Shown: piece by piece, positions 24,397-64,000 of the stretch
Numbering within the stretch: the first letter of the stretch is position 1
Layout: every line of letters starts with the position of its first letter
Source: Odoribacter sp.
GTDB lineage: Bacteria; Bacteroidota; Bacteroidia; Bacteroidales; Marinifilaceae
DNA: 64,000 bases
Direction of reading: 5' to 3'
Assembly (NCBI GenBank): GCA_036657595.1
Contig: JAVXFZ010000008.1
Span: 108-64,107 of the forward strand
The notes under the pieces: model-generated
Databases searched by the model: none
Told to the model about the DNA's origin: nothing
What the model saw: only the letters and a program-made list of their open reading frames with translations
Translations under genes and position numbers: made by a program

Positions 24397-24471
<75 letters not shown>

Positions 24472-44217: not shown

Positions 44218-44664
44218 ATGTCTTCTTTTATTGGCGATTATACTTGTAAGGCTGACAGTAAGTGTCGAGTGGTGGTTCCGTCCTCTTTCAGAAAGGTGAT
44301 GGAAGCATCTGAACAGACGTTTTTTGTGCTACGTAAAAATATTTTCGGGAAGTGTATTGATATGTATCCGATGGAGGAATGGGAGCGAATGATTGCGGAG
44401 TTGAGATCTAAGTTGAATTTGTTTAATCCGAAGCACACGGTTTTTTTGAGGGAGTTTTGTCGGGGGATGCAAGAGGTGGAGATGGATACGAATGGACGGA
44501 TTTTATTGCCGCGCCGAATGTTGGATGAAGTAGGGATAGATAAGGAGATGGTGATGGCGGCTCAGGATGCTATGATTCAGATTTGGGATATAGAGGCTTA
44601 TGCGGAGGTGGCAGTGGATGCCGGCGGATTGGGGCAGTTGGCGGAGGAGATTTTTAAAAGTTGA
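44218..44664 (+). CDS. mraZ: Division/cell wall cluster transcriptional repressor
   Basis: FIGDYTCKADSKCRVVVP and MDTNGRILLP SpoVT/AbrB repeats. Confidence 0.93.
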   Translation: MSSFIGDYTCKADSKCRVVVPSSFRKVMEASEQTFFVLRKNIFGKCIDMYPMEEWERMIAELRSKLNLFNPKHTVFLREFCRGMQEVEMDTNGRILLPRRMLDEVGIDKEMVMAAQDAMIQIWDIEAYAEVAVDAGGLGQLAEEIFKS

Positions 44665-44751
44665 AGATCGGAAGACGCAAGTTGAACGATGGCAGATGGG
44701 AGAGTAGGGGAATAAGAGGTAAAAAAAAGGAATTTAATTTTTAATTATATT

Positions 44752-45660: not shown

Positions 45661-45709
45661 TGGTGAGCGATTGTTTAACGTGTAATGATCAGTTGGTTGT
45701 AAGCTTTTA

Positions 45710-46087
45710 GTGATGGAACAGCAGGATGAAGATAAGGATATAAAGATCCCGGAAGAGGAGGTAAAAGAGGTGAAGAAAGCCTCTTCGATGAAGGGTATGC
45801 TGGAAGGTAGTTTGTTGGCAGAGAAATTGAGGAGTAACATTCGTTTTGTGTTGTTTGCAACCTTTTTGGGGATTTGGTATATTACGAATGGTTATTCAAC
45901 AGAAAAGCTTCATCGGGAAAGAGGCGAACTGGAAAAAGAGGTGACAGATCTGAGGTTTGAGTCGATTACGACTGCCGCCGATTTGATGTTTATGAGAAAG
46001 CAGTCGGAAGTATTGAAACGGATACACCGGGAGGGGTTGACATTGGAGGAGAGTAAAGAACCGCCGGTAAAATTGTATAGGAGGTAG
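45710..46087 (+). CDS. ftsL: FtsL-like cell division protein
   Basis: Position between rsmH and the PBP gene; single TM plus coiled coil. Confidence 0.75.
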   Translation: MMEQQDEDKDIKIPEEEVKEVKKASSMKGMLEGSLLAEKLRSNIRFVLFATFLGIWYITNGYSTEKLHRERGELEKEVTDLRFESITTAADLMFMRKQSEVLKRIHREGLTLEESKEPPVKLYRR

Positions 46088-46089
46088 AG

Positions 46090-48195: not shown

Positions 48196-48240
48196 TTAGT
48201 GATAAAATAGATGGATAAAGGCGGGAGGTTTGTTGATTTG

Positions 48241-48260
48241 TTGAACATTTGAACATTTGA
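48241..48260. repeat. 8-bp tandem repeat before murE
   Basis: TTGAACAT TTGAACAT TTGA. Confidence 0.5.
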
Positions 48261-49720
48261 TAGTCGTGAAAAAATTAAAAGAATTATTGGATGGAATTCG
48301 TTTTGAGAAAATATGCGGTGACACCGAGATGGATGTCAATGCCGTGCATTTTGATTCCAGAAAAATAGGTAAAGGCGATTTGTTTGTAGCGCAACGAGGT
48401 GTGAGTGTGGATGGGCACGTTTATATTGCTAAGTCGGTGGCAGCGGGGGCAGTGGCTGTCGTTTGTGAGGAGTTGCCGAAAGAACTGACAGCAGGCGTGA
48501 CTTATCTTGTGACGTTGGATTCGTCGGACGCACTGGGGAAGATTGCTTCAAATTATTACGGCAATCCTTCGCGGGCATTGAAATTGGTCGGGGTGACCGG
48601 TACGAACGGAAAGACGACAACGGCTACTTTGTTGTATGAATTAGTTCGTTTTGCGGGGTATAAAGCAGGACTTTTGTCTACGGTGTGTAATTATATCGGG
48701 GATGAGAAGATTCAGGCTACGCATACAACTCCTGACGCTTTATCTATTAATGAGTATATGCGGCGGATGGTGGATGCGGGATGTACCTATTGTTTTATGG
48801 AGGCGAGTTCGCATTCTATTCATCAGAAACGTATAGCCGGATTGGATTTTGATGGAGCTATTTTTTCTAATATTACTCACGATCATTTGGATTATCATAA
48901 GACTTTTAAGGCATATATAGAGGCTAAAAAGGCATTTTTTGACCGTTTGCCTGCTCACGCTTTTGCTTTGACGAATGCGGATGATAAGAATGGTTTGGTG
49001 ATGTTGCAGAATACGGTGGCGCATTCATATACTTATTCGTGTCGGACGATGTCGGACTTTAGTTGTAAGGTGGTTGAAAAGCGGTTGGACGGTACGCTGT
49101 TGAAGTTGGACGGTTGTGAAGTGTGGACGAAATTTACGGGTGATTTTAATGCTTATAATATTCTTGCCGTTTATGCAACGGCTTGTTTGTTGGATTTCCC
49201 GAAAGAGGATGTGTTGAAGTATGTGAGTATGCTTGTGCCGGTATCCGGTCGTTTTGAAACGATGATTTCAGGAAAAGGGGTGATGGCTGTTGTTGATTAT
49301 GCTCATACGCCGGATGCGGTGGAGAATGTGCTTTCTACGATCAGTGGGTTGAAAGGTAAGAATAATCAGGTGATAACTGTGGTGGGTGCCGGAGGAGATC
49401 GAGATAAAACGAAACGTCCGGAAATGGCTGATGCGGCTTGTCGGTATAGTGATCGGGTGATTCTGACTTCTGATAATCCGAGAAGTGAGGAACCGGAGGA
49501 TATTATTCGTGATATGCAGACCGGAGTGAAAGAGGAGTATCAGAATAAAGTGGAAATCGTTGTCGATCGTCGGGAAGCGATTCGGCAGGCTCTTGCTATG
49601 GCAGGGAAGGGGGATATTGTTTTAGTTGCCGGAAAAGGTCACGAAGATTATCAGGAAATTAAGGGAGTGAAGCATCATTTTGATGATAAAGAAGTTATAA
49701 AAGAGGTGTTTAACTTTTAA
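48257..49720 (+). CDS. murE: UDP-N-acetylmuramoyl-dipeptide:meso-DAP ligase (start may be GTG 48266)
   Basis: GVTGTNGKTT, HTTPD, MEASSH, DHLDYH, VDYAHTPDA, DNPR, AGKGHE. Confidence 0.96.
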   Translation: MIVVKKLKELLDGIRFEKICGDTEMDVNAVHFDSRKIGKGDLFVAQRGVSVDGHVYIAKSVAAGAVAVVCEELPKELTAGVTYLVTLDSSDALGKIASNYYGNPSRALKLVGVTGTNGKTTTATLLYELVRFAGYKAGLLSTVCNYIGDEKIQATHTTPDALSINEYMRRMVDAGCTYCFMEASSHSIHQKRIAGLDFDGAIFSNITHDHLDYHKTFKAYIEAKKAFFDRLPAHAFALTNADDKNGLVMLQNTVAHSYTYSCRTMSDFSCKVVEKRLDGTLLKLDGCEVWTKFTGDFNAYNILAVYATACLLDFPKEDVLKYVSMLVPVSGRFETMISGKGVMAVVDYAHTPDAVENVLSTISGLKGKNNQVITVVGAGGDRDKTKRPEMADAACRYSDRVILTSDNPRSEEPEDIIRDMQTGVKEEYQNKVEIVVDRREAIRQALAMAGKGDIVLVAGKGHEDYQEIKGVKHHFDDKEVIKEVFNF

Positions 49721-49729
49721 TTGTAAGAT

Positions 49730-50980
49730 ATGTTATACCATTTGTTTCAGTATTTAGAGCAGTTGCATTTTCCTGGTGCGGGAATGTTTCAATACATTAC
49801 TTTTCGCTCAGCCTGTGCTATTATTCTTTCGTTGCTGATTGCTACGGTTGTGGGCAAGCGGGTGATTCGTCGGTTACAGAAACAGCAGATTGGCGAGGAG
49901 ATTCGCGATCTCGGACTTGAAGGACAGATGCAAAAAAAGGGAACACCGACAATGGGAGGTGTTATTATTTTATTGGCGATTCTGGTGCCTGTGCTTTTGT
50001 TTGCCCGTTTGGATAATATTTATACGCAGTTGATGATTATTTCAACGATCTGGCTTGGATTAATTGGTTTTGCGGATGATTATATTAAAGTGTTTCGTAA
50101 GCACAAAGAGGGACTGAAAGGACGTTTTAAGGTGATCGGACAGGTCGGTTTGGGACTGATTGTCGGATTAACGCTTTATGTGAGTGATGATGTGGTTATT
50201 CGCGAGCGGGCAACACCTTCTGAAGTGGGAGTGGTGACGAGTATGGTGGATGAAGGTTTTTCTGAAGGAAACGGGAAGAAGATTTTAACTAAGGATGTGA
50301 AGTCAACACGGACTACTATTCCTTTTTTTAAAGGGAATGAATTGGATTATGCGTGGTTTACTTCTTTTGCCGGTAAATATGCGGATCAGATGGGGTGGTT
50401 GTTGTTTGTGATTGTGACTATTTTTATTATTACAGCAGTGTCGAATGGGGCAAATTTGACGGATGGACTTGATGGATTGGCGACGGGGACGTCGGCTATT
50501 ATCGGGGCTACGTTGGGTATATTGGCGTATGTTTCAGGTAATATGGTCTATGCTGATTATTTGCATATTATGTATATACCCCATTCCGGGGAGTTGGTGG
50601 TGTTTATTTCTGCGTTTATCGGGGCAACCATCGGATTTTTGTGGTATAATTCTTTCCCGGCGCAGGTGTTTATGGGGGATACCGGAAGTTTGTCGTTGGG
50701 AGGTATTATTGCTGTTTTTGCGATCATTATACACAAGGAGTTGTTGATACCCGTACTTTGTGGTGTTTTCTTGGTGGAGAATTTGTCGGTGGTGATGCAG
50801 GTGAGTTATTTTAAATATACGAAACAGAAGTATGGTGAGGGACGTCGTGTTTTTTTGATGTCGCCCTTGCATCATCATTATCAGAAGAAGGGGATTCCGG
50901 AGCCGAAGATTGTTACCCGTTTTTGGATTATTGGGATTATTTTGGCAGTGCTTACGATTGTGACACTGAAAATTAGATAA
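49730..50980 (+). CDS. mraY: Phospho-N-acetylmuramoyl-pentapeptide transferase
   Basis: [37 protein letters not shown]. Confidence 0.97.
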
Positions 50981-51024
50981 TGAAAAGATAGCGATTTTAT
51001 TGCTGATAGGTAATTATAATAGAA

Positions 51025-52365
51025 TTGATTATGAGATTGGTTATTTTGGGTGGAGGAGAAAGTGGCGTAGGAGCAGCCTTATTGGGTAGGAAACTGGGTT
51101 ATGAGGTTTTTTTGTCGGATAAGGGTTGTTTGGCTGATAAATATAGAGGAATCCTGTTGAAGAATGGATTTGAGTTTGAAGAAGGACATCACACGGAGGA
51201 GCGAATATTTAATGCTGATTTGGTGGTGAAAAGTCCGGGTATCCCTGATACGGTGGCGATGATCGTGAAGTTGCGTGCCGAGGGGATAGAGGTGATCTCT
51301 GAAATAGAATTTGCGGGACGGCATTCTGCCTCTAAGATGGTTTGTATTACCGGTAGCAATGGTAAGACAACGACTACTTTGCTGATTCATCATATTCTTA
51401 CGCATTGCGGTCGAGATGCCGGTTTGGCGGGGAATGTGGGTAGAAGTCTTGCGGCACAGGTGGCAGAGAATGCACACGAGTTGTATGTGGTGGAGCTTTC
51501 CAGTTTTCAATTGGATGGTATGTTCCGTTTTCGTGCTGATATTGCTATTTTGACGAATATTACACCCGATCATTTGGATCGTTATGACCATAAGTTTGAA
51601 AATTATATAGATTCAAAGTTTCGGATTTTAAATAATATGCGTCCACGGGATTTGTTTATCTATGGGCAGGATAGCGAGGCGGTGCGCCAGAAATTGAGTC
51701 GGTTGAAGGTGGAGGTTGATCAGCTTAGTTTTACTTATGGCAGTCGGGAGAACGGTTACGGAGCTTGGATGGAAGGAGGAGTTGTGGTGGCAAAATCGGA
51801 TGATAGGGAATTTCGGATGAATCCCTCGGAGATTAGTATTAAAGGACGGCACAATGTTTATAATGCAATGGCAGCTATTTTGGCTTGTATGCGGATGGGT
51901 GTCAGTGATGGAGATATAGCAGAGGGTTTGCGGACTTTTCCACAGGTGGAGCATCGGCTTGAAACGGTTGTTGTGAAGTCGGGGGTTACTTATATTAATG
52001 ATTCTAAAGCTACGAATGTGGATTCGTCGTGGTATGCTTTGGATAGTATGACGACTCCTGTGGTGTGGATCGCCGGAGGTACGGATAAGGGGAATGATTA
52101 CAGCGTTTTGTTTGATTTAGTTCGACAGAAGGTGAAGGTGTTGATTTGTATGGGTTTGGATAATCGCAAGTTGATTGAGAATTTTGCGTCAATATGTAAA
52201 GTGGTCGATACCAATAATTTGGCGGATGCATTGAAGGCTGCCAGAGAGAATGCGGTTTGCGGGGATACGGTGTTGTTATCTCCTTGCTGTGCCAGTTTTG
52301 ATTTGTTTAAGAATTATGAAAATCGAGGTGAGCTTTTTAAAGCTGCCGTTCGAGAGATAATCTGA
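51025..52365 (+). CDS. murD: UDP-N-acetylmuramoyl-L-alanine:D-glutamate ligase
   Basis: ITGSNGKTTT, ELSSFQL, DHLDRY, NDSKATN, SPCCASFD. Confidence 0.97.
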   Translation: MIMRLVILGGGESGVGAALLGRKLGYEVFLSDKGCLADKYRGILLKNGFEFEEGHHTEERIFNADLVVKSPGIPDTVAMIVKLRAEGIEVISEIEFAGRHSASKMVCITGSNGKTTTTLLIHHILTHCGRDAGLAGNVGRSLAAQVAENAHELYVVELSSFQLDGMFRFRADIAILTNITPDHLDRYDHKFENYIDSKFRILNNMRPRDLFIYGQDSEAVRQKLSRLKVEVDQLSFTYGSRENGYGAWMEGGVVVAKSDDREFRMNPSEISIKGRHNVYNAMAAILACMRMGVSDGDIAEGLRTFPQVEHRLETVVVKSGVTYINDSKATNVDSSWYALDSMTTPVVWIAGGTDKGNDYSVLFDLVRQKVKVLICMGLDNRKLIENFASICKVVDTNNLADALKAARENAVCGDTVLLSPCCASFDLFKNYENRGELFKAAVREII

Positions 52366-52413
52366 GTTTAGGGAACGCAATGTGTAATTTGTAAGGTAGT
52401 TGTAGGTGGCTAT

Positions 52414-53943
52414 ATGATGAGCAATTGGAAAGATAAAATGGCGTTTAAGGGAGATAAGATACTTTGGTATATTATCATTATGCTGATGATTGCTTCGGTG
52501 ATGGTCGTTTATTCGGCTACCGGGCGATTGGCATATAATGAGCAGGGAGGAAATACATTTTTTTATTTGATCAAACAATTGTTTTTGATTGGCGGTTGTT
52601 TTGCGATTATGTTTGTTGTTCAGTCTATTCATTATCGGAATTTTTATAAGTATGCGGGGGTATTGTTGTTTATTTCTGTTTTGCTTTTGATGTATGCCGC
52701 CTTTGGAGGAACTAATATTAATGGGGCAGGGCGTTGGATTCGTATACCTCTGATCGGTATGACCTTTCAGCCTTCGGAGTTGGCGAAGATCGCTATTATG
52801 ATGTTTACTTCGCGGATATTGGCGGATGCACAGACGGAATATGGTTGTGAAGATAGTGCTTTGAATAGATTTCTTGTTTTTGTGGGTCCGGTGATTTTGT
52901 TGATTTTTTTGGATAACTTTTCTACCTCCGCCTTGGTGGGCTTGGTTAGTTTTATATTGTTTATGGTGGCGCGGATGCGCTGGAAAGTGTTGGGCATTAC
53001 TTTTGGTGTGGCACTTTCGGCCATTATTATTGTTTTGGTGATTGGTTTTTGTGTGCCACAGGCGAAGGAATGGGGACGTATCGGTACGATGGTGAGCCGT
53101 ATTACAGATTTTGCACAGGGGAGTGATGATAGCGATGGTTATTCTTATCAGTCGGTGCAGGCGCGGATTGCTGTTGCGCGGGGTGGTTTGATGGGGAATG
53201 GTCCCGGTAATAGTACGCAACGGAATTTTTTACCTCATCCGTATTCTGATTTTATTTATGCGATTGTGATTGAAGAGTATGGACTGGGAGGAGGAGGTTT
53301 TATAATGTTGCTCTATGCTGTAATATTGTTTCGGGTGGGGGTGATTAGTCGAAAGAGTTTGAAGGGGGCAGAATTGAATGCGCGGGGGATGCCGGATATA
53401 TTTCCGGCGTTGCTGGTGACCGGTTTAGGTTTGACGATTGTGATTCAGGCGATGATTAATATGGGCGTATGTGTGGGGGTGTTGCCCGTTACGGGGCAGA
53501 CTTTGCCATTGGTAAGTATGGGAGGAACATCGCTATGGTTTACGAGTGCCTCTTTTGGTATTATTCTTAGTATTGCTCATACTTTTTCACCTGAAGGTCA
53601 GGCAGAAGAAGCTGAGAGAATGAGATGGAAGAGTGAAAAGTTGGTGAAACCGGAGAAACGAAAGAAGAAGGAAGAGTATGAGGATTTACCTGTTAACGAG
53701 GAGGAGGAAGAGGATGATTGGGTGGAGGGTGAATTACCGGAAGTGAAGCCGGAAGAAAAACCGACGAAACCAATACGGCGACGAGGACGGCGAGTGGCTG
53801 ATGAAGAATCGGAAAAAGAAGAGGATATTGATATTATCGGAGAAGAGGGAATGAAAGATATGAGTGAGCAATTGGAAAGTGAGGGACGTGAAGTTTTAAA
53901 GGAGTTGCGGAGAAGGGGGAGAAGAGCTAATTTGGAGGATTAA
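52414..53943 (+). CDS. ftsW: Peptidoglycan glycosyltransferase FtsW with long charged C-terminal tail
   Basis: QPSELAK, DFIYAIVIEEYG, GQTLPLVSMGGTS; ~115-aa acidic tail. Confidence 0.92.
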   Translation: MMSNWKDKMAFKGDKILWYIIIMLMIASVMVVYSATGRLAYNEQGGNTFFYLIKQLFLIGGCFAIMFVVQSIHYRNFYKYAGVLLFISVLLLMYAAFGGTNINGAGRWIRIPLIGMTFQPSELAKIAIMMFTSRILADAQTEYGCEDSALNRFLVFVGPVILLIFLDNFSTSALVGLVSFILFMVARMRWKVLGITFGVALSAIIIVLVIGFCVPQAKEWGRIGTMVSRITDFAQGSDDSDGYSYQSVQARIAVARGGLMGNGPGNSTQRNFLPHPYSDFIYAIVIEEYGLGGGGFIMLLYAVILFRVGVISRKSLKGAELNARGMPDIFPALLVTGLGLTIVIQAMINMGVCVGVLPVTGQTLPLVSMGGTSLWFTSASFGIILSIAHTFSPEGQAEEAERMRWKSEKLVKPEKRKKKEEYEDLPVNEEEEEDDWVEGELPEVKPEEKPTKPIRRRGRRVADEESEKEEDIDIIGEEGMKDMSEQLESEGREVLKELRRRGRRANLED

Positions 53944-53963
53944 AGATTAAATTAGATATATGT

Positions 53964-55076
53964 ATGAAAAGAGTGATTGTCAGTGGTGGCGGAACGGGAG
54001 GTCATATTTTCCCCGCTTTATCAATTGCTAATGCTTTAAAGCGGTTGGAGCCGGATATGGAGATTTTATTTGTCGGTGCAGAGGGGAAAATGGAGATGGA
54101 AAAAGTGCCTGAGGCGGGTTATCGAATAGAAGGTTTGCCGGTGAGAGGATTGCAGCGGCGTTTGACGTTTGAAAATGTGAAGGTGTTGGTGAATCTTTGG
54201 AAGAGTTTGCGGAAGGCACGTCGGATTGTGAAGGAGTTTAAACCGGATGCTGTTGTCGGAGTGGGAGGGTATGCCAGTGGACCGATTGGGCGTGTGGCTG
54301 CAAATGCCGGTATTCCGTTGATTTTGCAAGAACAAAATTCGTATGCCGGAGTGACAAATAAATTATTGGCGAAGAAAGCTTGCCGGATCTGTGTAGCATA
54401 CGAAGGTATGGAGCGTTTTTTCGGGAAGGATAAGATTGTATTTACCGGGAATCCTGTACGCAAGGATTTGCTCGGTGGAGAAAATCTACGGGGAGAGGGA
54501 ATGTCTTTTTATTCTTTGGACCCGTCGAAAAAGACTGTTTTGATGACAGGAGGAAGTTTGGGTGCCGGGACATTAAATAAAGCTCTTTTGAAGGCGATGG
54601 ATAAAATTGCTACGTGGAAAGAGGTGCAGGTGTTATGGCAGTGTGGCAGTTATTATTATGAAGATTTGAAAAAGCAATTGGAGGGAAAGTTGCCTGATAA
54701 TATTCGTTTGATGCCTTTTTTGAAACGGATGGATTTGGCTTATGCTTGTGCGGATGTGGTGATTGCCCGTGCTGGTGCTGGGACTATTTCTGAGTTGTGT
54801 TTGTTGGGAAAGGTGGCTGTATTGATTCCTTCGCCGAATGTGTCGGAGGATCATCAGACGAAGAATGCAATGGCTTTGGTGAATAAAAATGCTGCTGTGA
54901 TATTGAAGGATGCTGAGGCTGAAGAGAAGTTGGAAGCTGTATTGTCGGATATTCTGTCTGATGGAAATCGTCGATTGGAATTGCAAAAAAATATTATGAA
55001 TCTGGCTGTCCATCATTCGGATGATAAGATTGCGAAAGAGGTATTGAAAGTAATTGAGGAAAGTAATCGTTTTTGA
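53964..55076 (+). CDS. murG: Undecaprenyl-PP-MurNAc-pentapeptide GlcNAc transferase
   Basis: GGGTGGHIFP, GGYASGP, QEQN, GNPVR, GGSLGA, RAGA, HQTKNA. Confidence 0.97.
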   Translation: MKRVIVSGGGTGGHIFPALSIANALKRLEPDMEILFVGAEGKMEMEKVPEAGYRIEGLPVRGLQRRLTFENVKVLVNLWKSLRKARRIVKEFKPDAVVGVGGYASGPIGRVAANAGIPLILQEQNSYAGVTNKLLAKKACRICVAYEGMERFFGKDKIVFTGNPVRKDLLGGENLRGEGMSFYSLDPSKKTVLMTGGSLGAGTLNKALLKAMDKIATWKEVQVLWQCGSYYYEDLKKQLEGKLPDNIRLMPFLKRMDLAYACADVVIARAGAGTISELCLLGKVAVLIPSPNVSEDHQTKNAMALVNKNAAVILKDAEAEEKLEAVLSDILSDGNRRLELQKNIMNLAVHHSDDKIAKEVLKVIEESNRF

Positions 55077-55167
55077 TGTATAGCTGGAATGGTTTGTTTG
55101 TCAGAAATTGTTAAAATATAAACGAAACGTCAAGTTGATGATTCAGTGAACTTAAATCGTCTTTGTT

Positions 55168-56550
55168 ATGGCAGAAATTTTAAGTAAAGGAATAAAAAAT
55201 ATATATTTTTTGGGGATCGGTGGGATCGGAATGAGCGCGTTAGCGCGTTATTTTAGGGCTTGTGGATATAAGGTTGCCGGATATGACCGTACTCCTTCAC
55301 CATTGACGGCTAAAATGCAAGAGGAGGAGGGGATCGCCATAAATTATCGGGATGAGGAGGAGGAAATAGCTTTGGAGTATAGAGATACTGAAACGACTTT
55401 GGTTGTTTATACACCGGCAATTCCTGCGAATAATCGGCAATTGCTTTTTTTGAAGGGTTTGGGCTTTACGTTGCATAAGCGGGCAGAAGTGTTGGGAATG
55501 ATTTCTCGTCAAGGGAAGGCGATTTGTGTCGCTGGGACTCACGGTAAGACGACGGTTTCGACGATGGTCGCTTTTCTGCTTTATCATTCTTCTGTCGGAT
55601 GTAATGCTTTTTTGGGTGGAATTTCTATGAATTTTGGAACCAATCTTTTATTGAATCGTAAGTCTCCGTATATTGTGATTGAAGCAGATGAGTTTGATCG
55701 TTCGTTTTTGCATTTAAGCCCGAAAATGGTGGCAATTACGGCAATGGATGAAGATCATTTGGATATTTATGGAGATAAGGCTAATCTGACGGATGCATTT
55801 GAAGCATTTGCTCAAAGGGTGTGTCCTGATGAAGGAAGGCTTTTTATCAAGAAAGGTTTGATGTTGGAAAAGACGGCGGTGACGGGATATTATGGCGTAG
55901 AAACGCCGGCTGATTGTGTCGCCGACCATTTGAGGGTTGAGGAGGGACATTATGTCTTTGATTATCACGGACGGGGGGTGGAGATGAAAGAATTGATGTT
56001 GGGTGTTCCGGGACGTTTGAATGTGGAGAATGCTACGGTAGCTATTACGCTGGCACTTGAAGCGGGGGTGAAGCCGGAGGAGATCCGGGCGGCATTGCCT
56101 GAATTTAGAGGAGTATTCCGCCGTTTTAATATTCATATTAATACGGGCGATTGTATTTATATTGATGATTATGCGCATCATCCGCGTGAAATAGAGGCAA
56201 CATTGCGTTCGATTCGGGAAATGTGGCCGGAGAAGTCGCTGACGGTAGTTTTTCAACCACATTTGTTTTCTCGTACGCGTGATTTTTATCCTGATTTTGC
56301 GCGTAGTTTGAGTTTGGCGGATGAAGTTGTTTTGTTGGATATTTATCCGGCACGGGAGTTGCCTATTCCGGGGATTACTTCGGAAGTTATTCGTGAACGC
56401 TTGACGGTGACAGGAAGAATTTTATCCAAAGAAGGATTGAAGGATTACATTCGGAATGAATTTCAAAAGGGTATTTTAGTGACGATGGGGGCTGGTGATA
56501 TAGATCGGATGGTGGAGGAAATCAGGACGGATTTGATGGCTAAAAATTGA
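55168..56550 (+). CDS. murC: UDP-N-acetylmuramate:L-alanine ligase
   Basis: GIGGIGMSALA, AGTHGKTT, EADE, DHLD, DDYAHHP, FQPHLFSRT. Confidence 0.97.
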   Translation: MAEILSKGIKNIYFLGIGGIGMSALARYFRACGYKVAGYDRTPSPLTAKMQEEEGIAINYRDEEEEIALEYRDTETTLVVYTPAIPANNRQLLFLKGLGFTLHKRAEVLGMISRQGKAICVAGTHGKTTVSTMVAFLLYHSSVGCNAFLGGISMNFGTNLLLNRKSPYIVIEADEFDRSFLHLSPKMVAITAMDEDHLDIYGDKANLTDAFEAFAQRVCPDEGRLFIKKGLMLEKTAVTGYYGVETPADCVADHLRVEEGHYVFDYHGRGVEMKELMLGVPGRLNVENATVAITLALEAGVKPEEIRAALPEFRGVFRRFNIHINTGDCIYIDDYAHHPREIEATLRSIREMWPEKSLTVVFQPHLFSRTRDFYPDFARSLSLADEVVLLDIYPARELPIPGITSEVIRERLTVTGRILSKEGLKDYIRNEFQKGILVTMGAGDIDRMVEEIRTDLMAKN

Positions 56551-56632
56551 AAAATGAAAGGGCTGATAGCTGAAAAAATAGTGATAAGAAAAAGGAATTA
56601 AGAACGACCTACTGCTCTCAATAATAGAGTTT

Positions 56633-57358
56633 ATGAAAAAAATATTACCTTATATATTATCTGTTAGTTTGCTTGCATACTTGATAATTGTGCTTACCTT
56701 TGCAACGACAAAATTGGAGGAGGTTAAGTGTAAGGGATTGCAGGTTGTCGTTGATGATACCGGGGAGAATGCGTTTATTGATGAAGAGGGAGTTTTGAGG
56801 GTGATTAAACGTGGATATGGTGATTTAAATGGTCGGAATGTTGTTTCTATTGATAAAGACAGTTTGGAACATATTTTGATCAGAAATTCGGTGATAAAGT
56901 CGGCTCAGATTTACTACAGTTTAGACGGTTATTTCCATATAGAGATCACACAACGAATGCCTGTATTGAGAGTTATGACAGGTGAAGGTTATTATGTGGA
57001 TGAAGATGGAAAGGTGATGCCGTTATCCGGGAAGTATACATCGCGTGTGGTGGTAGCTACCGGAAATATATCCAGAAAATTTGCTTGTAGCGGATTATTT
57101 CCTTTTGTGATGGCATTGAAAGACGATGAGTTTTGGAATGCATTGGTTGAACAAATTATTGTCATAAATGGCGATGAGGTTGTTTTGATACCTAAAATTG
57201 GTAATTTTAGAATTGTCTTAGGACAGTTGGAGGAGGTAGATAAAAAGTTAGATAATTTGCGATTGTTCCTTCACGATGGGATTTCCTTGAAAGGATGGAA
57301 TAGATATAAGGAGATCAATTTGAAGTTTGAAAATCAAATTGTTTGTGTAAAAAAATGA
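56633..57358 (+). CDS. ftsQ: Cell division protein FtsQ/DivIB
   Basis: N-terminal TM, POTRA-like region, ITQRMPVLRV, INLKFENQIVC; dcw position. Confidence 0.85.
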   Translation: MKKILPYILSVSLLAYLIIVLTFATTKLEEVKCKGLQVVVDDTGENAFIDEEGVLRVIKRGYGDLNGRNVVSIDKDSLEHILIRNSVIKSAQIYYSLDGYFHIEITQRMPVLRVMTGEGYYVDEDGKVMPLSGKYTSRVVVATGNISRKFACSGLFPFVMALKDDEFWNALVEQIIVINGDEVVLIPKIGNFRIVLGQLEEVDKKLDNLRLFLHDGISLKGWNRYKEINLKFENQIVCVKK

Positions 57359-57384
57359 ATGAAGTAATGAAATTGTAAGAAGAT

Positions 57385-58554
57385 ATGGGTTTTACTGCAT
57401 CTTTAGATATGGGGTCTGAAAAAATGGTGATGGCATTGGCTTCGACTGAGAATAATGCTTGCCGTTTGACTGGTATAAAAATAGTAGCTTCGCAGGGTAT
57501 TGAGCGTGGAATAGTGAAGGATAAAGAAAAGGTACGTGCCTGTATCCGCGGGTTGATGTCAGAATTGTTGAAAGAGCGTGACGTGGATGTTATGATTGTG
57601 GCATTGTCGGGTGATGTTTTGCGTATATCGGAGCGACGTATCACGGTGCCTTTGCAGAAAAAGGTGGTTGAGCAGAATGACTTGTTGAGAGCAGAACAAC
57701 GTTGTATTGATGGCTTTGAGGAGGGACACGATGAGTTGGTGGACGTGATTCCTGTTGCTTATTCTATTGATAAAGGGGATTTGATCGCCGATCCTTTGGG
57801 ACGATCCGGTCGGCATTTGGAGGTTACCTATCAGGTGTATGCTGCCGGATGTGATTATTTGGAGGGAATTCGGAAGTTGTTTGATGGTACGGGGATAGGG
57901 GAAGTTTGTTTTTCTCCGGCGGTACGTGCTTACAGTGAAGCTTTCGATGTAGAGAAGGTGAAAAAGGATTTTGCCTTGGTGGATTTTGGCGCAATGAAGA
58001 TAAATGTGGTGCTTTTCCGTGATGGTATGTTGGAATATGAGGCGTGTTTGCCATTGGGAGCACATAGCATTGATAATGATATAATGAAGGCATTTGCATT
58101 GAGTGGTGGACAAGCTCGTAAGTTGAAACACGAGTATGGGCAGGCATTAAGGTCTGCTTGTAAAAATAAAAAATTGCAGATTCCTGATACACGGTTGACC
58201 TTAGAAAGCCGTGATTTGGCGATGGTGATTCAAAGTCGGGCAGAGGAGTTGTTGGAAGGGGTGGTTTATCAATTGCAAAGTTGGGGATTTGACGAGCCGG
58301 AGGATGAGATTTTACTGACGGGTGGAGGAAGTCGTTTGCAGGATATAGATACCTTATTGAATCGACTTTCCGGCCATCGGGTGGGGCGGGTCATAGCGAA
58401 AGGGATACATACCACGCGAGAGGAAGTGTTGCATACGCCTGAATATTTGGTGGCTTTGGGGTTGTTGTTGTCTGATCGACAAGCTCCCCAAGAAACAAAG
58501 GGTAGTTTGGGCGGAAAGATTACCAAAGGATTGAAGGGCATTTTTGGTATTTGA
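57385..58554 (+). CDS. ftsA: Cell division protein FtsA (divergent)
   Basis: LDMGSEK, SQGIERG, LTGGGSRL, C-terminal amphipathic helix KITKGLKGIFGI; dcw position. Confidence 0.85.
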   Translation: MGFTASLDMGSEKMVMALASTENNACRLTGIKIVASQGIERGIVKDKEKVRACIRGLMSELLKERDVDVMIVALSGDVLRISERRITVPLQKKVVEQNDLLRAEQRCIDGFEEGHDELVDVIPVAYSIDKGDLIADPLGRSGRHLEVTYQVYAAGCDYLEGIRKLFDGTGIGEVCFSPAVRAYSEAFDVEKVKKDFALVDFGAMKINVVLFRDGMLEYEACLPLGAHSIDNDIMKAFALSGGQARKLKHEYGQALRSACKNKKLQIPDTRLTLESRDLAMVIQSRAEELLEGVVYQLQSWGFDEPEDEILLTGGGSRLQDIDTLLNRLSGHRVGRVIAKGIHTTREEVLHTPEYLVALGLLLSDRQAPQETKGSLGGKITKGLKGIFGI

Positions 58555-58621
58555 TGTTTTAATATGAAGTGATTTAGTTATTTATTTATAGTGTTAGTTT
58601 TTATCTTATATCTTTTTTGTT

Positions 58622-59941
58622 ATGGAAATAGATGACGACTTAATTTCGCTGAAGTTACCGGATCAGGGGCAAGAGGAATCGATTATTAAAGTGATCGGTG
58701 TCGGTGGTGGCGGAAGTAATGCTGTGAACCATATGTTTTCTCAGGGAATTCACGGTGTCGAATTTGTCGTTTGTAACACGGATATACAGGCTTTGCGACA
58801 GAGCCGGGTGAAGAATCGTATACAATTGGGGAAGGAGCTTACGGATGGACGTGGGGCAGGATGTCAGCCTGAACAGGGACGTTTGTCGGCGGTTGAGAGT
58901 ATTGATTTTATTAAAACGATTCTTCAGCATAATACCCGTATGGTATTTATCACAGCCGGAATGGGCGGTGGAACGGGTACAGGAGCTGCACCGGAAATTG
59001 CAAGGTTGGCTCGAGAGATGGGGATATTGACGATTGGAATTGTCACCGTACCTTTTAGTTTTGAAGGGAAACGAAAGATAGAGCAGGCGATGGAGGGGAT
59101 TGATGAATTGGAGGAGTATGTCGATGCTTTGTTGATTATTGCCAACGAACGACTGCGAGAGATATATGGCGACTTGAAATTGTCGGATGCTTTTTCTATG
59201 GCTGATAATATATTGACAATTGCAGCTAAAAGTATAGCGGAGATTATCACGGTCAAGGGATATGTGAATGTCGATTTTGCCGATGTGGAGAGTGTTATGC
59301 GTGAGAGTGGCGTTGCCTTGATGGGAGCTTCTGAGGCAGAAGGGGAGGAACGTGCAATGGAAGCTTTGTCAAATGCATTGATATCTCCTTTGCTGAATAG
59401 TAATGATATTCGGGGCGCTTCGAATATTTTACTGAATATACTTTACGGTGAAAAAGAGGTGACGATGGATGAGATTAGTTTGATTACCGATACGTTGCGA
59501 GAGAAGGTAGGGAAGAATGTAAATGTTATTTGGGGAGCGGGTAAGGATGAGGTTTTGGGTGAAAAGTTGCGTGTAGCTGTTATTGCTACTGGTTTTAATA
59601 GTAATGGTGGTAAGGTATCGCCTGCTATATCACAACGAAAAGAAACTCCTGTTGCACAGACTGTTTCTGTTGCACCGGAAGCTCCTGTGAGTAAGCCTTA
59701 TTTTAAGGTGGAAACTTTGCCTGATGATTTAGAGATGAGGGTGGTTAATCCGGTAGAAGTGGAAAATGAAGCACGTCAGCGGCGACAGAAACAGGAGGAT
59801 GAGCGTGAACGTCGGCAGCGACGGAATGTAAATCGGCGTACTGAAGATTTTGAACGTGGCAATCGTGGTCTGAATGAGGTGCCTGATACCAATAGTTGGC
59901 TAAAGAATAAGATAGGGACATTATTCAGCGATGATGAATAA
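58622..59941 (+). CDS. ftsZ: Cell division protein FtsZ, paralogue 1 (439 aa)
   Basis: IKVIGVGGGG, GMGGGTGTG tubulin signature, T7 loop NVDFADV, VIATGF. Confidence 0.96.
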   Translation: MEIDDDLISLKLPDQGQEESIIKVIGVGGGGSNAVNHMFSQGIHGVEFVVCNTDIQALRQSRVKNRIQLGKELTDGRGAGCQPEQGRLSAVESIDFIKTILQHNTRMVFITAGMGGGTGTGAAPEIARLAREMGILTIGIVTVPFSFEGKRKIEQAMEGIDELEEYVDALLIIANERLREIYGDLKLSDAFSMADNILTIAAKSIAEIITVKGYVNVDFADVESVMRESGVALMGASEAEGEERAMEALSNALISPLLNSNDIRGASNILLNILYGEKEVTMDEISLITDTLREKVGKNVNVIWGAGKDEVLGEKLRVAVIATGFNSNGGKVSPAISQRKETPVAQTVSVAPEAPVSKPYFKVETLPDDLEMRVVNPVEVENEARQRRQKQEDERERRQRRNVNRRTEDFERGNRGLNEVPDTNSWLKNKIGTLFSDDE

Positions 59942-60026
59942 AATGCAATGGACGAGCAAGAATGAATGATAGAATAAAAGGGGTGAATAAGTGAAGAGGT
60001 TCAACATTCAATATTTAGTGATCGAC

Positions 60027-60056
60027 AGATAAACGGATAAACGAATAAACGAATTA
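60027..60056. repeat. 8-bp-period tandem repeat between the two ftsZ genes
   Basis: AGATAAAC GGATAAAC GAATAAAC GAATTA. Confidence 0.65.
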
Positions 60057-60061
60057 GGGTC

Positions 60062-61189
60062 ATGGTTGACGGATTTATAAATTTTAATCTGAATGAGAAG
60101 ACTCCCACTATTATTAAAGTGATTGGCGTAGGAGGAGGAGGAGGAAATGCAGTGGAGTATATGTACGATAAGGGGATCTGCGATGTGGATTTCGTAATCT
60201 GCAATACAGATTATCAGGCATTGAGGAATAGTCCGATACCTTTTAAAATACAGCTTGGCAAAGAACTAACGGAAGGACACGGTGCTGGTAATAATCCGGT
60301 GATGGGTGAACAATCAGCGCAAGAAAGTTTGGGTGATATAGAAACGCTTTTGCAAAATAATACCCGAATGGTGTTTATTACGGCTGCGATGGGAGGTGGA
60401 ACAGGCACAGGTGCTGCTCCGGTGATAGCAAAAATTGCTAAAGATATGGGTATCCTTACCGTCGGTATTGTTTCTGTTCCGGCACGCTTTGAGGGTCCGA
60501 AACGGCTTGATCAGGCTCGCGACGGATTGAAGCGATTGAAGGATCACGTTGATTGTCTTATTATGATAGATAATGAAAAGATAAAGTCAATATATGGTTC
60601 TCAAACAATTTCTGCTGCTTTTGCTAAGGCGAATGATGTGTTGAATATTGCGGCGAAAGGAATCGCTGAGATTATTACGCTTCCCGGTTATATCAATGTT
60701 GATTTTGCTGATGTGAGAACAGTGATGACCGATAGTGGTGTGGCTATTATGGGGGCGGCGCAGGCATCCGGTGAAGATCGTGCAATACGTGCGATAACGG
60801 AGGCATTAGAAAGTCCATTGTTGAATAATAATGATATTTTAGGAGCAAAGGATATATTGTTGAATATTACGTCCGGTACGGATGAAATCACGATGGATGA
60901 GATGTCGCAAATTACTTCGCATATTATTCAAAAGGTGGGTAATAGTGCGGCAGTGATCTGGGGGGTAGGTACGGATATTAATTTAGGGGATGCCATCTCT
61001 GTAACGATAATTGCTACCGGTTTTCCTACCGGTGATATAGAGCTGTTTGGAGAGGATACGGTGAGTACGGATGTGGATAGACCTGTTACATTAAAAGATG
61101 CAGTTGTCAAACCGGGATTGACTGCCACAGCAATACAGGAACTTGAAAGTGTCCCTGCTTTCAAGAGGAGGGAATTGAAAGTCAATTGA
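60062..61189 (+). CDS. ftsZ: Cell division protein FtsZ, paralogue 2 (375 aa)
   Basis: IKVIGVGGGG, AMGGGTGTG, NVDFADV, IIATGF; C-terminal ELESVPAFKRR. Confidence 0.96.
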   Translation: MVDGFINFNLNEKTPTIIKVIGVGGGGGNAVEYMYDKGICDVDFVICNTDYQALRNSPIPFKIQLGKELTEGHGAGNNPVMGEQSAQESLGDIETLLQNNTRMVFITAAMGGGTGTGAAPVIAKIAKDMGILTVGIVSVPARFEGPKRLDQARDGLKRLKDHVDCLIMIDNEKIKSIYGSQTISAAFAKANDVLNIAAKGIAEIITLPGYINVDFADVRTVMTDSGVAIMGAAQASGEDRAIRAITEALESPLLNNNDILGAKDILLNITSGTDEITMDEMSQITSHIIQKVGNSAAVIWGVGTDINLGDAISVTIIATGFPTGDIELFGEDTVSTDVDRPVTLKDAVVKPGLTATAIQELESVPAFKRRELKVN

Positions 61190-61240
61190 AAATGAAAATA
61201 ACTACTGATCTTTCAGGGTTAAAAAGATTAGTGGGATAAA

Positions 61241-61355
61241 AAATGCAGATCGCTGCATTTATATTGAGAATACGGCGTTTGCCGTTTGTGAAGCAGCTAA
61301 GGCTGCAATAATTTTAACGCAGTCACAGGCTGCTTGTAACGCAGTCATAGGCTGC
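61241..61355 (+). other. Array of short GC-rich hairpins / direct repeats upstream of the DEAD-box helicase gene
   Basis: AAATGCAG-ATCG-CTGCATTT, ACGGC-GTTT-GCCGT, GCAGC-TAAG-GCTGC, and TAACGCAGTCA(C/T)AGGCTGC twice at 22-bp spacing. Confidence 0.7.
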
Positions 61356-61367
61356 ATAAATAATCGA

Positions 61368-63191
61368 ATGGAAAAATTTAAAGAATTAGGTTTAGAAGGA
61401 GAAATCCTTAAGGGAATTGAAGATTTAGGGTTTGATATGCCCACACCAGTGCAGGAAAAAGTGATCCCAGTGATTTTAGGGGAAGGGAATGATTTGGTTG
61501 TACTTGCTCAAACAGGTACAGGAAAAACTGCCGCTTTTGGTCTACCGTTGTTACAAAAACTCGATACCTCTTTGAATGAGGTGCAGGTGCTTATTTTGAG
61601 TCCTACTCGGGAATTGTGTATGCAAATTGGTAAGGATTTAATGAATTATGCAAAATACAGGAAAGATATTCGTGTTGCTTGCGTATATGGAGGGACGGAT
61701 ATTCGCAGGCAGATGAGTGAATTGAATAGGGGTGTACACGTTTTGGTTGCAACACCGGGACGGCTTTGCGATTTAATGAAGCGGAATGCTGTGAAGATCG
61801 TACACGTGCGGTCTGTAGTACTCGATGAGTCGGATGAGATGTTGAATATGGGTTTCAAGGAAGATTTGAATTTTATCTTAGACGAAACACCATCGGAGAG
61901 AAATACTTATTTGTTTTCTGCAACAATGCCGCGCGAGGTGGAACGGATTGCGAAGCATTATATGCGTAATGCACAAGAAATTTCTACCGGAAAGAAGAAT
62001 CAAGGAGCTGATACGGTGTCGCACGAGTATTATCAAGTGCTTGCTCGAGACTGTTATGAAACTTTGCATCGTGTGATTGATTGTTCTCCTGATATGTATG
62101 CAATTATCTTTACACGTACGAAAGTGGATGCACGGGATATTGTGCGTAAACTTCAGAAAGATGGGATTGATTGTGATGCTTTACACGGTGATTTGAGTCA
62201 GGGACAACGCGATGAAGTGATGGAGCGTTTCCGTGGAAAACGTTTGAAAGTACTGGTCGCAACCGATGTGGCTGCTCGTGGTTTGGATGTTGATAATCTG
62301 ACTCACGTAATCAATTATAATTTGCCGGAAGATGTGGAAAGTTATACCCACCGTAGTGGTCGTACCGGTCGTGCCGGTCGTGAGGGTATTTCGGTAGCGA
62401 TTATCAATTCAAAGGAAAAGGGGAAATTGCACAGGATTGAGAGTGTGTTGAAAAAGAAATTCCAATATCGGGAAGTGCCTCGTGGAGAGGAAGTATGTCG
62501 GGCACAACTTCTTTATTATGCTGATAAGATATTGGCATCGGAGCCCAAAGAGATGCTTGATAAATATCAGCACGAATTATTTGAGAAATTTGGTGAACTG
62601 ACAAAAGAGGAGTTGATACAGAAAATAGTGTCGTACGAATTTGGGAAATTGCTTAAGAAATATGCTTCGGTGAATGACTTGAACATTTCAGAGGATGAGC
62701 GGCACAGTGATCGGGGTGCCCGAACTGAAGGACGTGGTGAGGTGCGTAGAGGTGGACGCGATAGAGAAGAAAGCAGTTCATTTACCCTTTTCAACGTGAA
62801 TGTAGGTCGGGAAGATGGTTTCACTCCACGCGACCTGATGGCAATTATTAATACTTATTCTCCACGAAAAGGTATTGAGATCGGTGGTATACGAATCTTT
62901 GACAACAATACGAAGTTTGAGGTAGATATTCGAGGAATAGAAGGATTTATGTCCAATTTTAATAATGTGAATTTTAATGGACTGCCTTTTACTCTTTCAG
63001 AATTACAGGAACGCTTTAGTCGTGGCGGAGATAGAGGTGATCGCCCTCGTGAATTTGGTGATCGTCGAAATTCTACGGCGAATAATAAATGGCGTTCTGA
63101 AAACCGACGTAGCGATGGTAGTAGTCGAGGACGTTTCGGTGAAAAGAAGAAAGGGATAGATAGTGTTAGTCGTCCACGTAAGAAATATTAA
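61368..63191 (+). CDS. DEAD-box RNA helicase (DeaD/CshA-like, with DbpA-type RNA-binding domain and Arg/Gly tail)
   Basis: Q motif PTPVQ, AQTGTGKT, PTREL, TPGRL, motif II DESD, SAT, HRSGRTGRAG. Confidence 0.93.
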   Translation: MEKFKELGLEGEILKGIEDLGFDMPTPVQEKVIPVILGEGNDLVVLAQTGTGKTAAFGLPLLQKLDTSLNEVQVLILSPTRELCMQIGKDLMNYAKYRKDIRVACVYGGTDIRRQMSELNRGVHVLVATPGRLCDLMKRNAVKIVHVRSVVLDESDEMLNMGFKEDLNFILDETPSERNTYLFSATMPREVERIAKHYMRNAQEISTGKKNQGADTVSHEYYQVLARDCYETLHRVIDCSPDMYAIIFTRTKVDARDIVRKLQKDGIDCDALHGDLSQGQRDEVMERFRGKRLKVLVATDVAARGLDVDNLTHVINYNLPEDVESYTHRSGRTGRAGREGISVAIINSKEKGKLHRIESVLKKKFQYREVPRGEEVCRAQLLYYADKILASEPKEMLDKYQHELFEKFGELTKEELIQKIVSYEFGKLLKKYASVNDLNISEDERHSDRGARTEGRGEVRRGGRDREESSSFTLFNVNVGREDGFTPRDLMAIINTYSPRKGIEIGGIRIFDNNTKFEVDIRGIEGFMSNFNNVNFNGLPFTLSELQERFSRGGDRGDRPREFGDRRNSTANNKWRSENRRSDGSSRGRFGEKKKGIDSVSRPRKKY

Positions 63192-63227
63192 ACCGGATTT
63201 CGTTTTAGTTGCTTTTACTTAAAACAT

Positions 63228-63258
63228 AAAGAAGTCACACCTTGGTGTGGCTTTTTTG
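63228..63258 (+). terminator. Intrinsic terminator after the helicase
   Basis: AGTCACACC-TT-GGTGTGGCT followed by TTTTT. Confidence 0.75.
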
Positions 63259-63636
63259 TATTTTAGAAAATTATTCTCCATTAAGATATAGTTTGACCTA
63301 TTATGACTAATGTTTGGAAGAATAAATATCCAAATATTTATAGATTTTGTAAGTATTCAAATAATAATTTATTTTTTTTAGATTTTTTCTTCTTTTCATT
63401 CACCCTCTTTTCTAAAAAATCTGTTCTACTATAACAAAGCAAAAATAATCGTTCCTTTATTTGGGTGATTAAAGTGCAGAAAAAAGATAAATAAGGAGGA
63501 ATGAAAAAATATAGATGTAAGTTGGTGTAGATAAATGCAAATAAGAAAAAAAAGAGGGAAGAATTAATAAAAAGTATTGTTGACTATGGAGGATTTTTTA
63601 CCTTCTATTTTCGACTCAAATAAAGGAACGTTTTTT

Positions 63637-64000
63637 ATGGATACAGAAGAGATGATGCAACACATATTGCTTTTGCTAAAAGGTAAAGCGACAGAAAATG
63701 AGGAAAGATTGGTGCGGGAGTGGTTTGATGAGAGCGAAGAGCATAGAAAGAGATACAAAGAAATCTGTGAGACGTATTATAAATTACAATTTGGGGCACA
63801 ATGGAAAGAAATTGACCTTCAAAGGGCGATTGAAAAATGCACCACACAGATTGGTAAAAAACGACCATTGAACAGAAGAATCTATCGTTTATCCACAGTG
63901 GCTGCTTTATTGTTGCTTTGTATAGGAATTATGATTCTAATGCGGCGACCGGAAAATAATGTTATAAAAGTAGCTGTATGTGAAGATGTGAGGTTTGGAG
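63637..64000 (+). CDS. FecR-family anti-sigma/sensor protein, partial (runs off the window end)
   Basis: Manual translation MDTEEMMQHILLLLKGKATENEERLVREWFDESEEHRKRY...AALLLLCIGIMIL; typical FecR N-terminus plus TM; alternative in-frame ATG at 63586. Confidence 0.8.
   Translation, partial: MDTEEMMQHILLLLKGKATENEERLVREWFDESEEHRKRYKEICETYYKLQFGAQWKEIDLQRAIEKCTTQIGKKRPLNRRIYRLSTVAALLLLCIGIMILMRRPENNVIKVAVCEDVRFG

Follow-up and report, generated by a model that had tools for sequence, protein, structure and literature searches.

The window analysed here, the whole 64,000-nucleotide stretch of DNA from an uncultured Odoribacter species, carries two complete ftsZ genes in tandem directly downstream of ftsA, namely ftsZ1 (58622..59941, + strand, 439 amino acids) and ftsZ2 (60062..61189, + strand, 375 amino acids), whose products differ most tellingly at their C-terminal ends. 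FtsZ2, here called b-type, has a short linker and a canonical C-terminal peptide. FtsZ1, here called a-type, has no canonical FtsA-binding peptide and ends in an amphipathic segment that resembles the tail of FtsA. On these sequence features it is proposed, with a probability of roughly 0.55, that the two proteins build a Z ring with two anchors, in which FtsZ2 would be tethered via FtsA and FtsZ1 would be bound directly to the membrane, FtsZ1 having arisen by unequal crossover between ftsA and ftsZ. The fuller version, in which FtsZ1 would be a natural FtsZ::FtsA-tail chimera that a single unequal crossover produced, would attach to the membrane free of any adaptor and would co-assemble with FtsA-dependent FtsZ2, is put forward more tentatively, at somewhat less than an even chance.

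Past the core, the tail of FtsZ1 is 114 residues long and that of FtsZ2 is 54 residues long. FtsZ2 ends in the C-terminal conserved peptide ELESVPAFKRRELKVN (residues 360-375; 61139..61186, + strand), which is of the FtsA/ZipA-binding type; by sequence, its ESVPAFKRR fits the pattern [DE]-[IV]-P-x-[FY]-x-[RK]-[RK], of which the E. coli equivalent is DYLDIPAFLRKQAD. A canonical FtsA-binding peptide was sought along the whole FtsZ1 tail and none was found. The first part of the FtsZ1 linker (residues 326-376; 59597..59749, + strand) is predicted to be disordered, with a predicted local distance difference test score (pLDDT) below 50 at residues 327-377. It is followed by an Arg/Glu-rich segment, PVEVENEARQRRQKQEDERERRQRRNVNRRTEDFER (residues 377-412; 59750..59857, + strand), which DSSP assigns to one long helix at a pLDDT of ~67-69. 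The C-terminal motif itself, PDTNSWLKNKIGTLFSDDE (residues 421-439; 59882..59938, + strand), is amphipathic and FtsA-tail-like and constitutes a putative membrane-targeting sequence.

The same arrangement is found well beyond the window. The distribution was scanned with FtsZ2 as the query in one genome per GTDB species, and the 80 loci kept were subjected to six-frame analysis. A tandem ftsA-ftsZa-ftsZb order was present in 10 Odoribacteraceae species (Odoribacter and Butyricimonas) and in 12 Prolixibacteraceae-type genomes, including Sunxiuqinia indica and Gaoshiqia hydrogeniformans, and the remaining 58 loci (Marinilabiliaceae, Williamwhitmania and various Bacteroidales metagenome-assembled genomes, MAGs) had a single ftsZ of ~490 amino acids. 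Two further tandem lineages came from a 50%-identity representative search, the MAG GCA_002754915.1 (L085) and the Logan contig L090. In total, 25 loci besides the window, belonging to four or more lineages, share its gene order, and the pair is intact in 12 of 12 Odoribacteraceae sequences (the window, O. splanchnicus and 10 other species-level genomes). The preliminary description of this DNA had placed the pair in a gut lineage, a restriction that no longer holds, given the tandem in environmental Prolixibacteraceae (Sunxiuqinia, Gaoshiqia). A profile search with the a-type proteins returned only proteins of Prolixibacteraceae, Sunxiuqinia and Odoribacter and added no new named family, and a metagenome scan with the L085 a-type protein returned four single-ftsZ loci and nothing else. 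B-type and single FtsZ proteins carry [DE]x[IV]PA[FY]xR[KR], which a-type proteins never do.

The likeness of the a-type tail to FtsA was assessed by profile methods. The FtsA encoded in the window has a C-terminal amphipathic tail, GSLGGKITKGLKGIFGI (residues 373-389; 58501-58551, + strand), and Bacteroidales FtsA C-termini in general are amphipathic with an acidic end, examples being GIFDSIKKTITDIFEENDARM, DLFGNLRRNIAGIFDERDTEM and GFFSSIKNQVAKQVTLFFEEDQDTEMS. A score matrix built from the FtsA tails of single-ftsZ species only located the Trp motif in 23 of the 24 a-type tails, always in register, with a mean score of 14; on b-type and single FtsZ tails its mean score was 1.7-6.9. When the last 40 residues were compared with hhalign, a-type FtsZ matched FtsA tails over 19 columns with a score of 21.2 (P=3.8e-5), a score that none of 300 column shuffles equalled (mean 6.6, standard deviation 1.5, maximum 11.1). 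Control comparisons with canonical FtsZ tails gave P=0.25 for the a-type tails and P=0.91 for the FtsA tails, and the a-type tails compared with Odoribacter's own FtsA tails gave P=0.003. By eye the clearest case is L090, in which the a-type end (VDTWFKRRFSQIFEDKDTEM, also given as WFKRRFSQIFEDKDTEM) lies close to the end of FtsA (NIAGIFDERDTEM). In the window the start of the motif, SWLK, resembles the SWIK of E. coli FtsA GSWIKRLNSWLRKEF, which is an established membrane-targeting sequence (Pichoff and Lutkenhaus, 2005, as cited in PMC12583498). The C-terminal amphipathic helix of E. coli FtsA is described as the membrane anchor of the Z ring (Pichoff and Lutkenhaus, 2005, as cited in PMC12583498).

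The a-type end, in all proteins but that of L085 (L085_a), follows the pattern D-x-x-x-W-[FL]-x-[RKN]-[KQ]-[FIL]-x-x-[FLIM]-F-x-[DE], with W426 invariant across the a-type proteins and R429 and F435 nearly so, while the cores of the families are only ~53% identical. The Prolixibacteraceae-type a-type tail reads NVDSWFARQFSRFFEDTDE, and a profile-profile comparison of Odoribacteraceae with Prolixibacteraceae-type a-type tails gave P=2.6e-7. Of 25 full-length a-type tails, 24 preserve hydrophobic positions 1, 2, 6, 9 and 10, and the acidic end of these tails is shared with the FtsA tails of the same order. Hydrophobic moments were 0.60-0.76 for Prolixibacteraceae-type tails and ~0.47 for the LKRKIGTLFSDE segment of the Odoribacter orthologues; computed in the same way, the value is 0.78 for E. 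coli FtsA and 0.41 for MinD.

The linkers of the canonical proteins also fall into distinct forms. FtsZ2 and its orthologues have a short linker and the canonical peptide at the very end, without extension. Single FtsZ proteins and Prolixibacteraceae-type b-type proteins have a long linker and the canonical peptide (e.g. DELENIPAYRRK), followed by an extension of ~40 residues. This extension, found at the single-ftsZ loci among L014-L083 and in Prolixibacteraceae-type b-type proteins (e.g. L049:6001-7416), ends in SRFSL...LRDNNSYLHDNVD, read SRFSL...NNSYLHDNVD; upstream of it the linker holds a further conserved motif, F[ED]F...[DE]ELYG, and the extension has been lost by Odoribacteraceae FtsZ2. 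To our knowledge, no function has been assigned to an extension after the FtsA-binding peptide in Bacteroidales FtsZ. Two FtsZ-internal sources for the a-type tail were tried with an a-type-motif matrix and rejected: in a scan over canonical FtsZ tails, neither the PAYxRK peptide nor the NSYLHDNVD end was matched significantly or consistently (z ~0). The charged part of the FtsZ1 linker, residues 377-412, is an Arg/Glu/Lys-rich predicted helix of the ER/K single-alpha-helix type; the usual FtsZ linker is fully disordered. Similar charged stretches occur in the a-type proteins of Butyricimonas, L011 and L085, and the K/E-rich version of L085_a is even longer.

In the proposed mechanism FtsZ2 would be the conventional partner of FtsA, keeping its VPAFKRR peptide on a short linker. 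FtsZ1 has lost the peptide and carries a linker of ~95 residues with the predicted charged helix, then SWLKNKIGTLF and acidic residues. Since this end segment matches the membrane-targeting FtsA tail of the order, FtsZ1 is predicted to bind to the inner membrane by itself, and such self-anchoring would make it a natural counterpart of the engineered FtsZ-mts (FtsZ with a membrane-targeting sequence). The polymerisation and GTPase surfaces are intact in both proteins, and both are thus predicted to enter one and the same Z ring, in filaments that are either mixed or adjacent. The resulting ring would have two independent anchors, and the division of labour between the paralogues would consist in the route to the membrane. 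That both proteins belong to the divisome, or co-polymerise, had been inferred in the preliminary description, and we likewise only infer it. As to origin, the likely event is one unequal crossover, a tandem duplication broken at the 3' end of ftsA on one side and within the ftsZ linker on the other, which would yield exactly the observed order ftsA, FtsZ-core::FtsA-tail, canonical ftsZ; in every locus the chimeric copy is upstream and the canonical copy downstream, which fits the crossover model.

Several observations weigh against this proposal. In the AlphaFold2 model residues 424-431 of FtsZ1 form a short predicted helix of low confidence (pLDDT below 50), and the Odoribacter FtsZ1 tail is only moderately amphipathic, with acidic residues after it. 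The end of L085_a, ...RTLFSE, is missing the half of the motif that contains the Trp, and the sequence past its stop codon was checked for a frameshift-hidden Trp motif with a negative result. Amphipathic segments of 15-20 residues could be alike through convergence, and membrane binding by the Bacteroidales FtsA tail is itself an extrapolation based on the E. coli, B. subtilis and T. maritima cases. The invariance of W426 and near-invariance of R429 and F435 over cores only ~53% identical would fit a specific protein-binding peptide equally well. Finally, in neighbour-joining trees the monophyly of all a-type proteins had a bootstrap value of only 22% on the globular core and 49-55% when tail columns were included. 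Lineage-specific duplications received 0-1% in the same bootstraps, a figure that could result from long-branch attraction, and the counts of shared derived residues for a single versus multiple origin (3, 3 and 3) were indecisive. L085_a groups with the Odoribacteraceae a-type proteins (66-68%) and L085_b with the b-type proteins (62-80%), and therefore the duplication is older than the split between L085 and the Odoribacteraceae.

Perhaps the end of FtsZ1 is a re-specified protein-binding peptide that has acquired a new partner, such as a Zap-like bundler, a Min or placement factor, a protease adaptor or FtsA at another site; in that case the hub role that the normal C-terminal peptide fulfils would be shared out between the paralogues. 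Besides the strict conservation just mentioned, this explanation would account for the acidic cluster after the helix, for the retention of only ...TLFSE in L085_a, and for the MAFFT alignment that placed the Trp under the Phe/Tyr of PA[FY]xR; moreover, the canonical peptide of T. maritima is also helical when bound to FtsA. It is nevertheless considered unlikely, given that the motif matches FtsA tails at P=3.8e-5 and matches neither the canonical FtsZ peptide nor the terminal extension, and that known membrane-targeting helices show the same hydrophobic pattern at positions 1, 2, 6, 9 and 10, together with basic residues. Quite improbable is a role of one paralogue outside cytokinesis (in shape, envelope growth or condition-specific division), in the manner of CetZ or FtsZm and without any two-FtsZ ring. 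The long branches of both Odoribacter copies relative to single-copy FtsZ (54-59% identity) and an altered T5 loop, PARFEG in FtsZ2 and PSxSEG in the Prolixibacteraceae-type a-type proteins, would be compatible with such a role, for which non-division relatives of FtsZ offer precedents (PMC9871819). Both genes, however, are located within the dcw (division and cell wall) operon, 11-50 base pairs (bp) apart in most species, and both products score over the ftsZ equivalog cut-off and retain the T7 and nucleotide-binding loops.

There is only a slim chance that FtsZ1 modulates ring dynamics as a brake or capper, comparable to the truncated alphaproteobacterial paralogues, and is no structural, self-anchoring subunit. 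Plastid FtsZ1 chiefly tunes turnover, and overexpression of A. tumefaciens FtsZ1 inhibits division (bioRxiv 10.1101/2025.09.29.679267), which are in line with such a function; the Odoribacter FtsZ1, however, is full length, with a 114-residue tail, a conserved terminal motif and no truncation. Misassembly, recent redundant duplication and pseudogene decay can all be set aside with near certainty, in view of independent contigs spanning the junction, 58% identity between the copies, intact pairs in 25 other loci, and ratios of nonsynonymous to synonymous substitution (dN/dS) of 0.02-0.08. On the same grounds the view taken in the preliminary description, that this is an old, retained duplication and no assembly repeat, was borne out, and the signs that would have spoken against it (a decaying copy, dN/dS near 1, patchy pseudogenisation or an unsupported junction) were looked for with negative results in each case.

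As to the junction, an independent public contig of 8.5 kb matches positions 57385-61400 with 11 mismatches and 0 gaps, and a second independent contig covers 58682-60630, across the boundary between ftsZ1 and ftsZ2. Contigs of O. splanchnicus carry ftsA, an ftsZ of 431 amino acids, an ftsZ of 378 amino acids separated by a 20-bp spacer, and the DEAD-box helicase gene. Each copy had a dN/dS of 0.02-0.08 in every pair with unsaturated synonymous sites (Nei-Gojobori method): for the a-type and b-type genes, respectively, 0.021 and 0.038 in L001-L005, 0.037 and 0.031 in L008-L009, 0.019 and 0.027 in L011-L012, and 0.028 and 0.037 in L058-L064. Between the window and other species the proportion of synonymous differences was 0.69-0.84 and that of nonsynonymous differences 0.08-0.19. 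Both copies are under strong purifying selection. Among 23 other loci in which the spacer between the genes was measured, 22 have one of 11-50 bp, the exception being L007 with 168 bp; these short distances and the hairpin-free spacer of the window argue for co-transcription, and ftsZ1 and ftsZ2 are probably co-transcribed. RNA runs linked to the window by species label alone yielded zero reads for the locus, and the sequence itself occurred only in metagenome-like assemblies.

Known systems with two FtsZ proteins provide partial parallels. Plastid FtsZ1 and FtsZ2 (FtsZB and FtsZA) form heteropolymers, and as in Odoribacter one of the two keeps the tether peptide and the other is without it. 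The peptide-lacking plastid paralogue is described as binding membrane through an amphiphilic motif at its own C-terminus (Liu et al., 2022, as cited in PMC12583498; bioRxiv 10.1101/2023.08.29.555414). The plastid pair differs in stemming from an independent cyanobacterial/plastid duplication, in its unlinked nuclear genes, in its tether, ARC6, and in a motif that is a beta-strand instead of an FtsA-like helix. FtsZ1 and FtsZ2 of Odinarchaeota, and archaeal pairs in general, are likewise two full-length paralogues with different tethering, a self-binding helix in one and an adaptor-recruited tail in the other (PMC12583498). In these, however, the helix is N-terminal, the adaptor is SepF, the duplication is an ancient archaeal one, and the genes are not in tandem (PMC12583498); in the Odoribacter pair the putative helix lies at the C-terminus and is like that of FtsA, FtsA would be the adaptor, and the duplication falls within Bacteroidales. 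Membrane binding has been demonstrated for OdinFtsZ1 (PMC12583498) and is only predicted for Odoribacter FtsZ1. The pair would thus work like those of Odinarchaeota and plastids, yet through an independent event internal to Bacteroidales.

In the engineered FtsZ-mts the core and linker of FtsZ are kept and an amphipathic membrane-targeting helix takes the place of the FtsA-binding peptide, as would be the case in FtsZ1. This construct, attributed to Osawa, Anderson and Erickson (2008) and used in bioRxiv 10.1101/079533, is artificial, carries the MinD helix and works alone, whereas FtsZ1 is natural, has an FtsA-like helix and stands alongside a canonical FtsZ and FtsA. Mycoplasma FtsZ is another bacterial FtsZ with a terminal amphipathic membrane-binding segment (bioRxiv 10.1101/2023.08.29.555414), but it is a single-copy protein of wall-less bacteria and has no paralogue. 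The alphaproteobacterial paralogues (A. tumefaciens FtsZ1 and FtsZ3, and others in Hyphomicrobiales) are long-retained bacterial duplications (bioRxiv 10.1101/2025.09.29.679267); they are truncated, with linker and peptide gone, and are mostly found outside the dcw cluster. By what is set out in the same source, the bacterial ftsZ duplications described so far are mostly truncated paralogues (bioRxiv 10.1101/2025.09.29.679267). Unlike Agrobacterium FtsZ1 and FtsZ3 or FtsZm, both Odoribacter copies are full length, adjacent and inside the dcw cluster. A recent survey placed extra bacterial ftsZ copies outside the dcw cluster (PMC9871819), a published generalisation that the tandem within the cluster corrects. 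No report of a tandem ftsZ in Bacteroidota was found in a literature search whose coverage did not extend to subscription journals. In the representative search, an 840-residue protein (P0121) with two complete FtsZ cores and a Pro-rich linker, ending in IPEFLRRRARR, was also encountered; it is GC-rich and unrelated to Bacteroidales, and represents either a fusion of two FtsZ proteins or two genes merged in gene calling.

Tethering of the Z ring, and its possible bearing on force generation, treadmilling and septal wall synthesis, is a central question of cytokinesis, which has so far been addressed with engineered FtsZ-mts, wall-less Mycoplasma, plastids and archaea. A conserved natural pair encoded in one operon, with one member FtsA-dependent by sequence and the other bearing an FtsA-like membrane helix, would offer a direct in vivo test bed. 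O. splanchnicus DSM 20712, a cultured diderm gut bacterium, has the same tail types, its proteins being 84% and 87% identical to the window pair. If the two-anchor proposal is true, walled diderms (Odoribacter, Butyricimonas, Prolixibacteraceae and others) would possess a Z ring with two independent anchors, and nature would have carried out its own FtsZ-mts experiment in a cultured human gut commensal. The locus would also illustrate in a simple way how one unequal crossover between adjacent genes may give rise to a new protein architecture.

The identity of both products as FtsZ is clear. Against TIGR00065, the NCBIfam ftsZ equivalog, FtsZ1 scored 361.7 bits and FtsZ2 352.5 bits, both above the cut-off of 295.2, and both contain the Pfam Tubulin and FtsZ_C domains. 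BLASTP aligned the two without gaps at 171/293 identical residues (58%), and the manual count of 182/307 over the cores given in the preliminary description was reproduced exactly (FtsZ1 residues 19-325). A protein from an Odoribacter sp. MAG matches FtsZ2 at 100% identity, and FtsZ of O. splanchnicus (strain DSM 20712 included) matches it at 87-88%; between FtsZ1 and its O. splanchnicus orthologue the identity is 84%. Identity is 54-60% with Bacteroidales FtsZ, to which both proteins are nearest, and 44% with E. coli FtsZ; by their sequences the two do not fit a descent from the archaeal or plastid FtsZ1/FtsZ2 duplications. In the 50%-identity representative search the best matches were all single FtsZ proteins (55-63% identity). 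Public databases label both gene types only as "cell division protein FtsZ".

The globular GTPase core comprises residues 20-325 of FtsZ1 (58679..59596, + strand) and residues 16-321 of FtsZ2 (60107..61024, + strand), and the T1, T4 and catalytic T7 (NxDFAD) loops were found in both. In FtsZ1 the T4 loop GGGTGTG lies at nucleotides 58964-58984 (+ strand) and the T7 loop NVDFADV at 59267-59287 (+ strand); in FtsZ2 the corresponding positions are 60392-60412 (+ strand) and 60695-60715 (+ strand). The presence of these two motifs in both copies had been noted beforehand, as had the variants PFSFEGKRK/PARFEGPKR and GRGAGCQP/GHGAGNNP, all of which were recovered as quoted. The same account had located the divergence of the pair in the 60 residues from VTVP; its count of 25/60 was matched exactly, but the functionally telling divergence is that of the C-terminal tails. 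Across 106 Bacteroidales sequences of all four classes the T4 GGGTGTG is invariant, and conservation extends to T1, T3 and T7 (N[VI]D[FY]ADV), save for single-residue variants in a few of the 106. AlphaFold2, run for FtsZ1 on a 24-sequence alignment, modelled the core with per-10-residue mean pLDDT values mostly of 70-94, with dips to 53-69. In the T5 motif PFxFEG, the first Phe is replaced by A, S or E in Odoribacteraceae b-type proteins (PARFEG in FtsZ2, 60473-60490) and by S or A in Prolixibacteraceae-type a-type proteins (PSxSEG), and it is retained by the sister copy in each pair.

Re-calling of the open reading frames gave exactly the positions and lengths first described, including the 120-bp spacer (59942..60061, + strand) and the place of the pair directly after ftsA. 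A scan of the spacer for a terminator-like hairpin found none, in agreement with the earlier reading, and Rfam and repeat scans of the ftsZ locus gave nothing relevant. Upstream of the pair are rsmH, ftsI, murE, mraY, murD, ftsW, murG, murC, a ftsQ-like open reading frame and ftsA, and the pair therefore stands at the end of the dcw cluster, as had been stated. The downstream neighbour (61368..63191, + strand), conserved and outside the system, encodes a DEAD-box RNA helicase with a DbpA domain.

The ftsA gene (57385..58554, + strand) encodes a short, divergent FtsA of 389 amino acids with the Pfam FtsA and SHS2_FTSA domains, which scored 165 bits against TIGR01174, under the cut-off of 175.85. 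Odoribacteraceae FtsA proteins (L001-L013 and the window) have 384-389 amino acids, versus 427-454 in related families, and their tail is without the acidic ...EENDxxM end found elsewhere. With FtsA short and the FtsZ2 linker unusually short, the tether between FtsA and FtsZ2 may be shortened on both sides.

Some further features of the window were recorded. Two adjoining tRNA genes (24286-24471, - strand) were the sole Rfam matches at the gathering threshold in the whole window. Just 5' of the helicase start codon at 61368, a 22-nucleotide unit occurs twice in tandem (TTTTAACGCAGTCACAGGCTGC and TTGTAACGCAGTCATAGGCTGC; 61312-61355), and a small hairpin-like sequence, GCAGCTAAGGCTGC, lies at 61293; neither has an Rfam match. 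The + strand shows a very strong excess of G over C at 44001-64000 and 10001-24000, with a GC skew of +0.29 to +0.49 over the dcw cluster and of +0.17 to +0.35 at 10-24 kb. Stretches of minus-strand genes have a GC skew of only about -0.05 to -0.13, and even of +0.15 to +0.19 at 40-44 kb; since these stretches are weakly negative or positive, the G bias exceeds a coding-strand effect and is unusually large.

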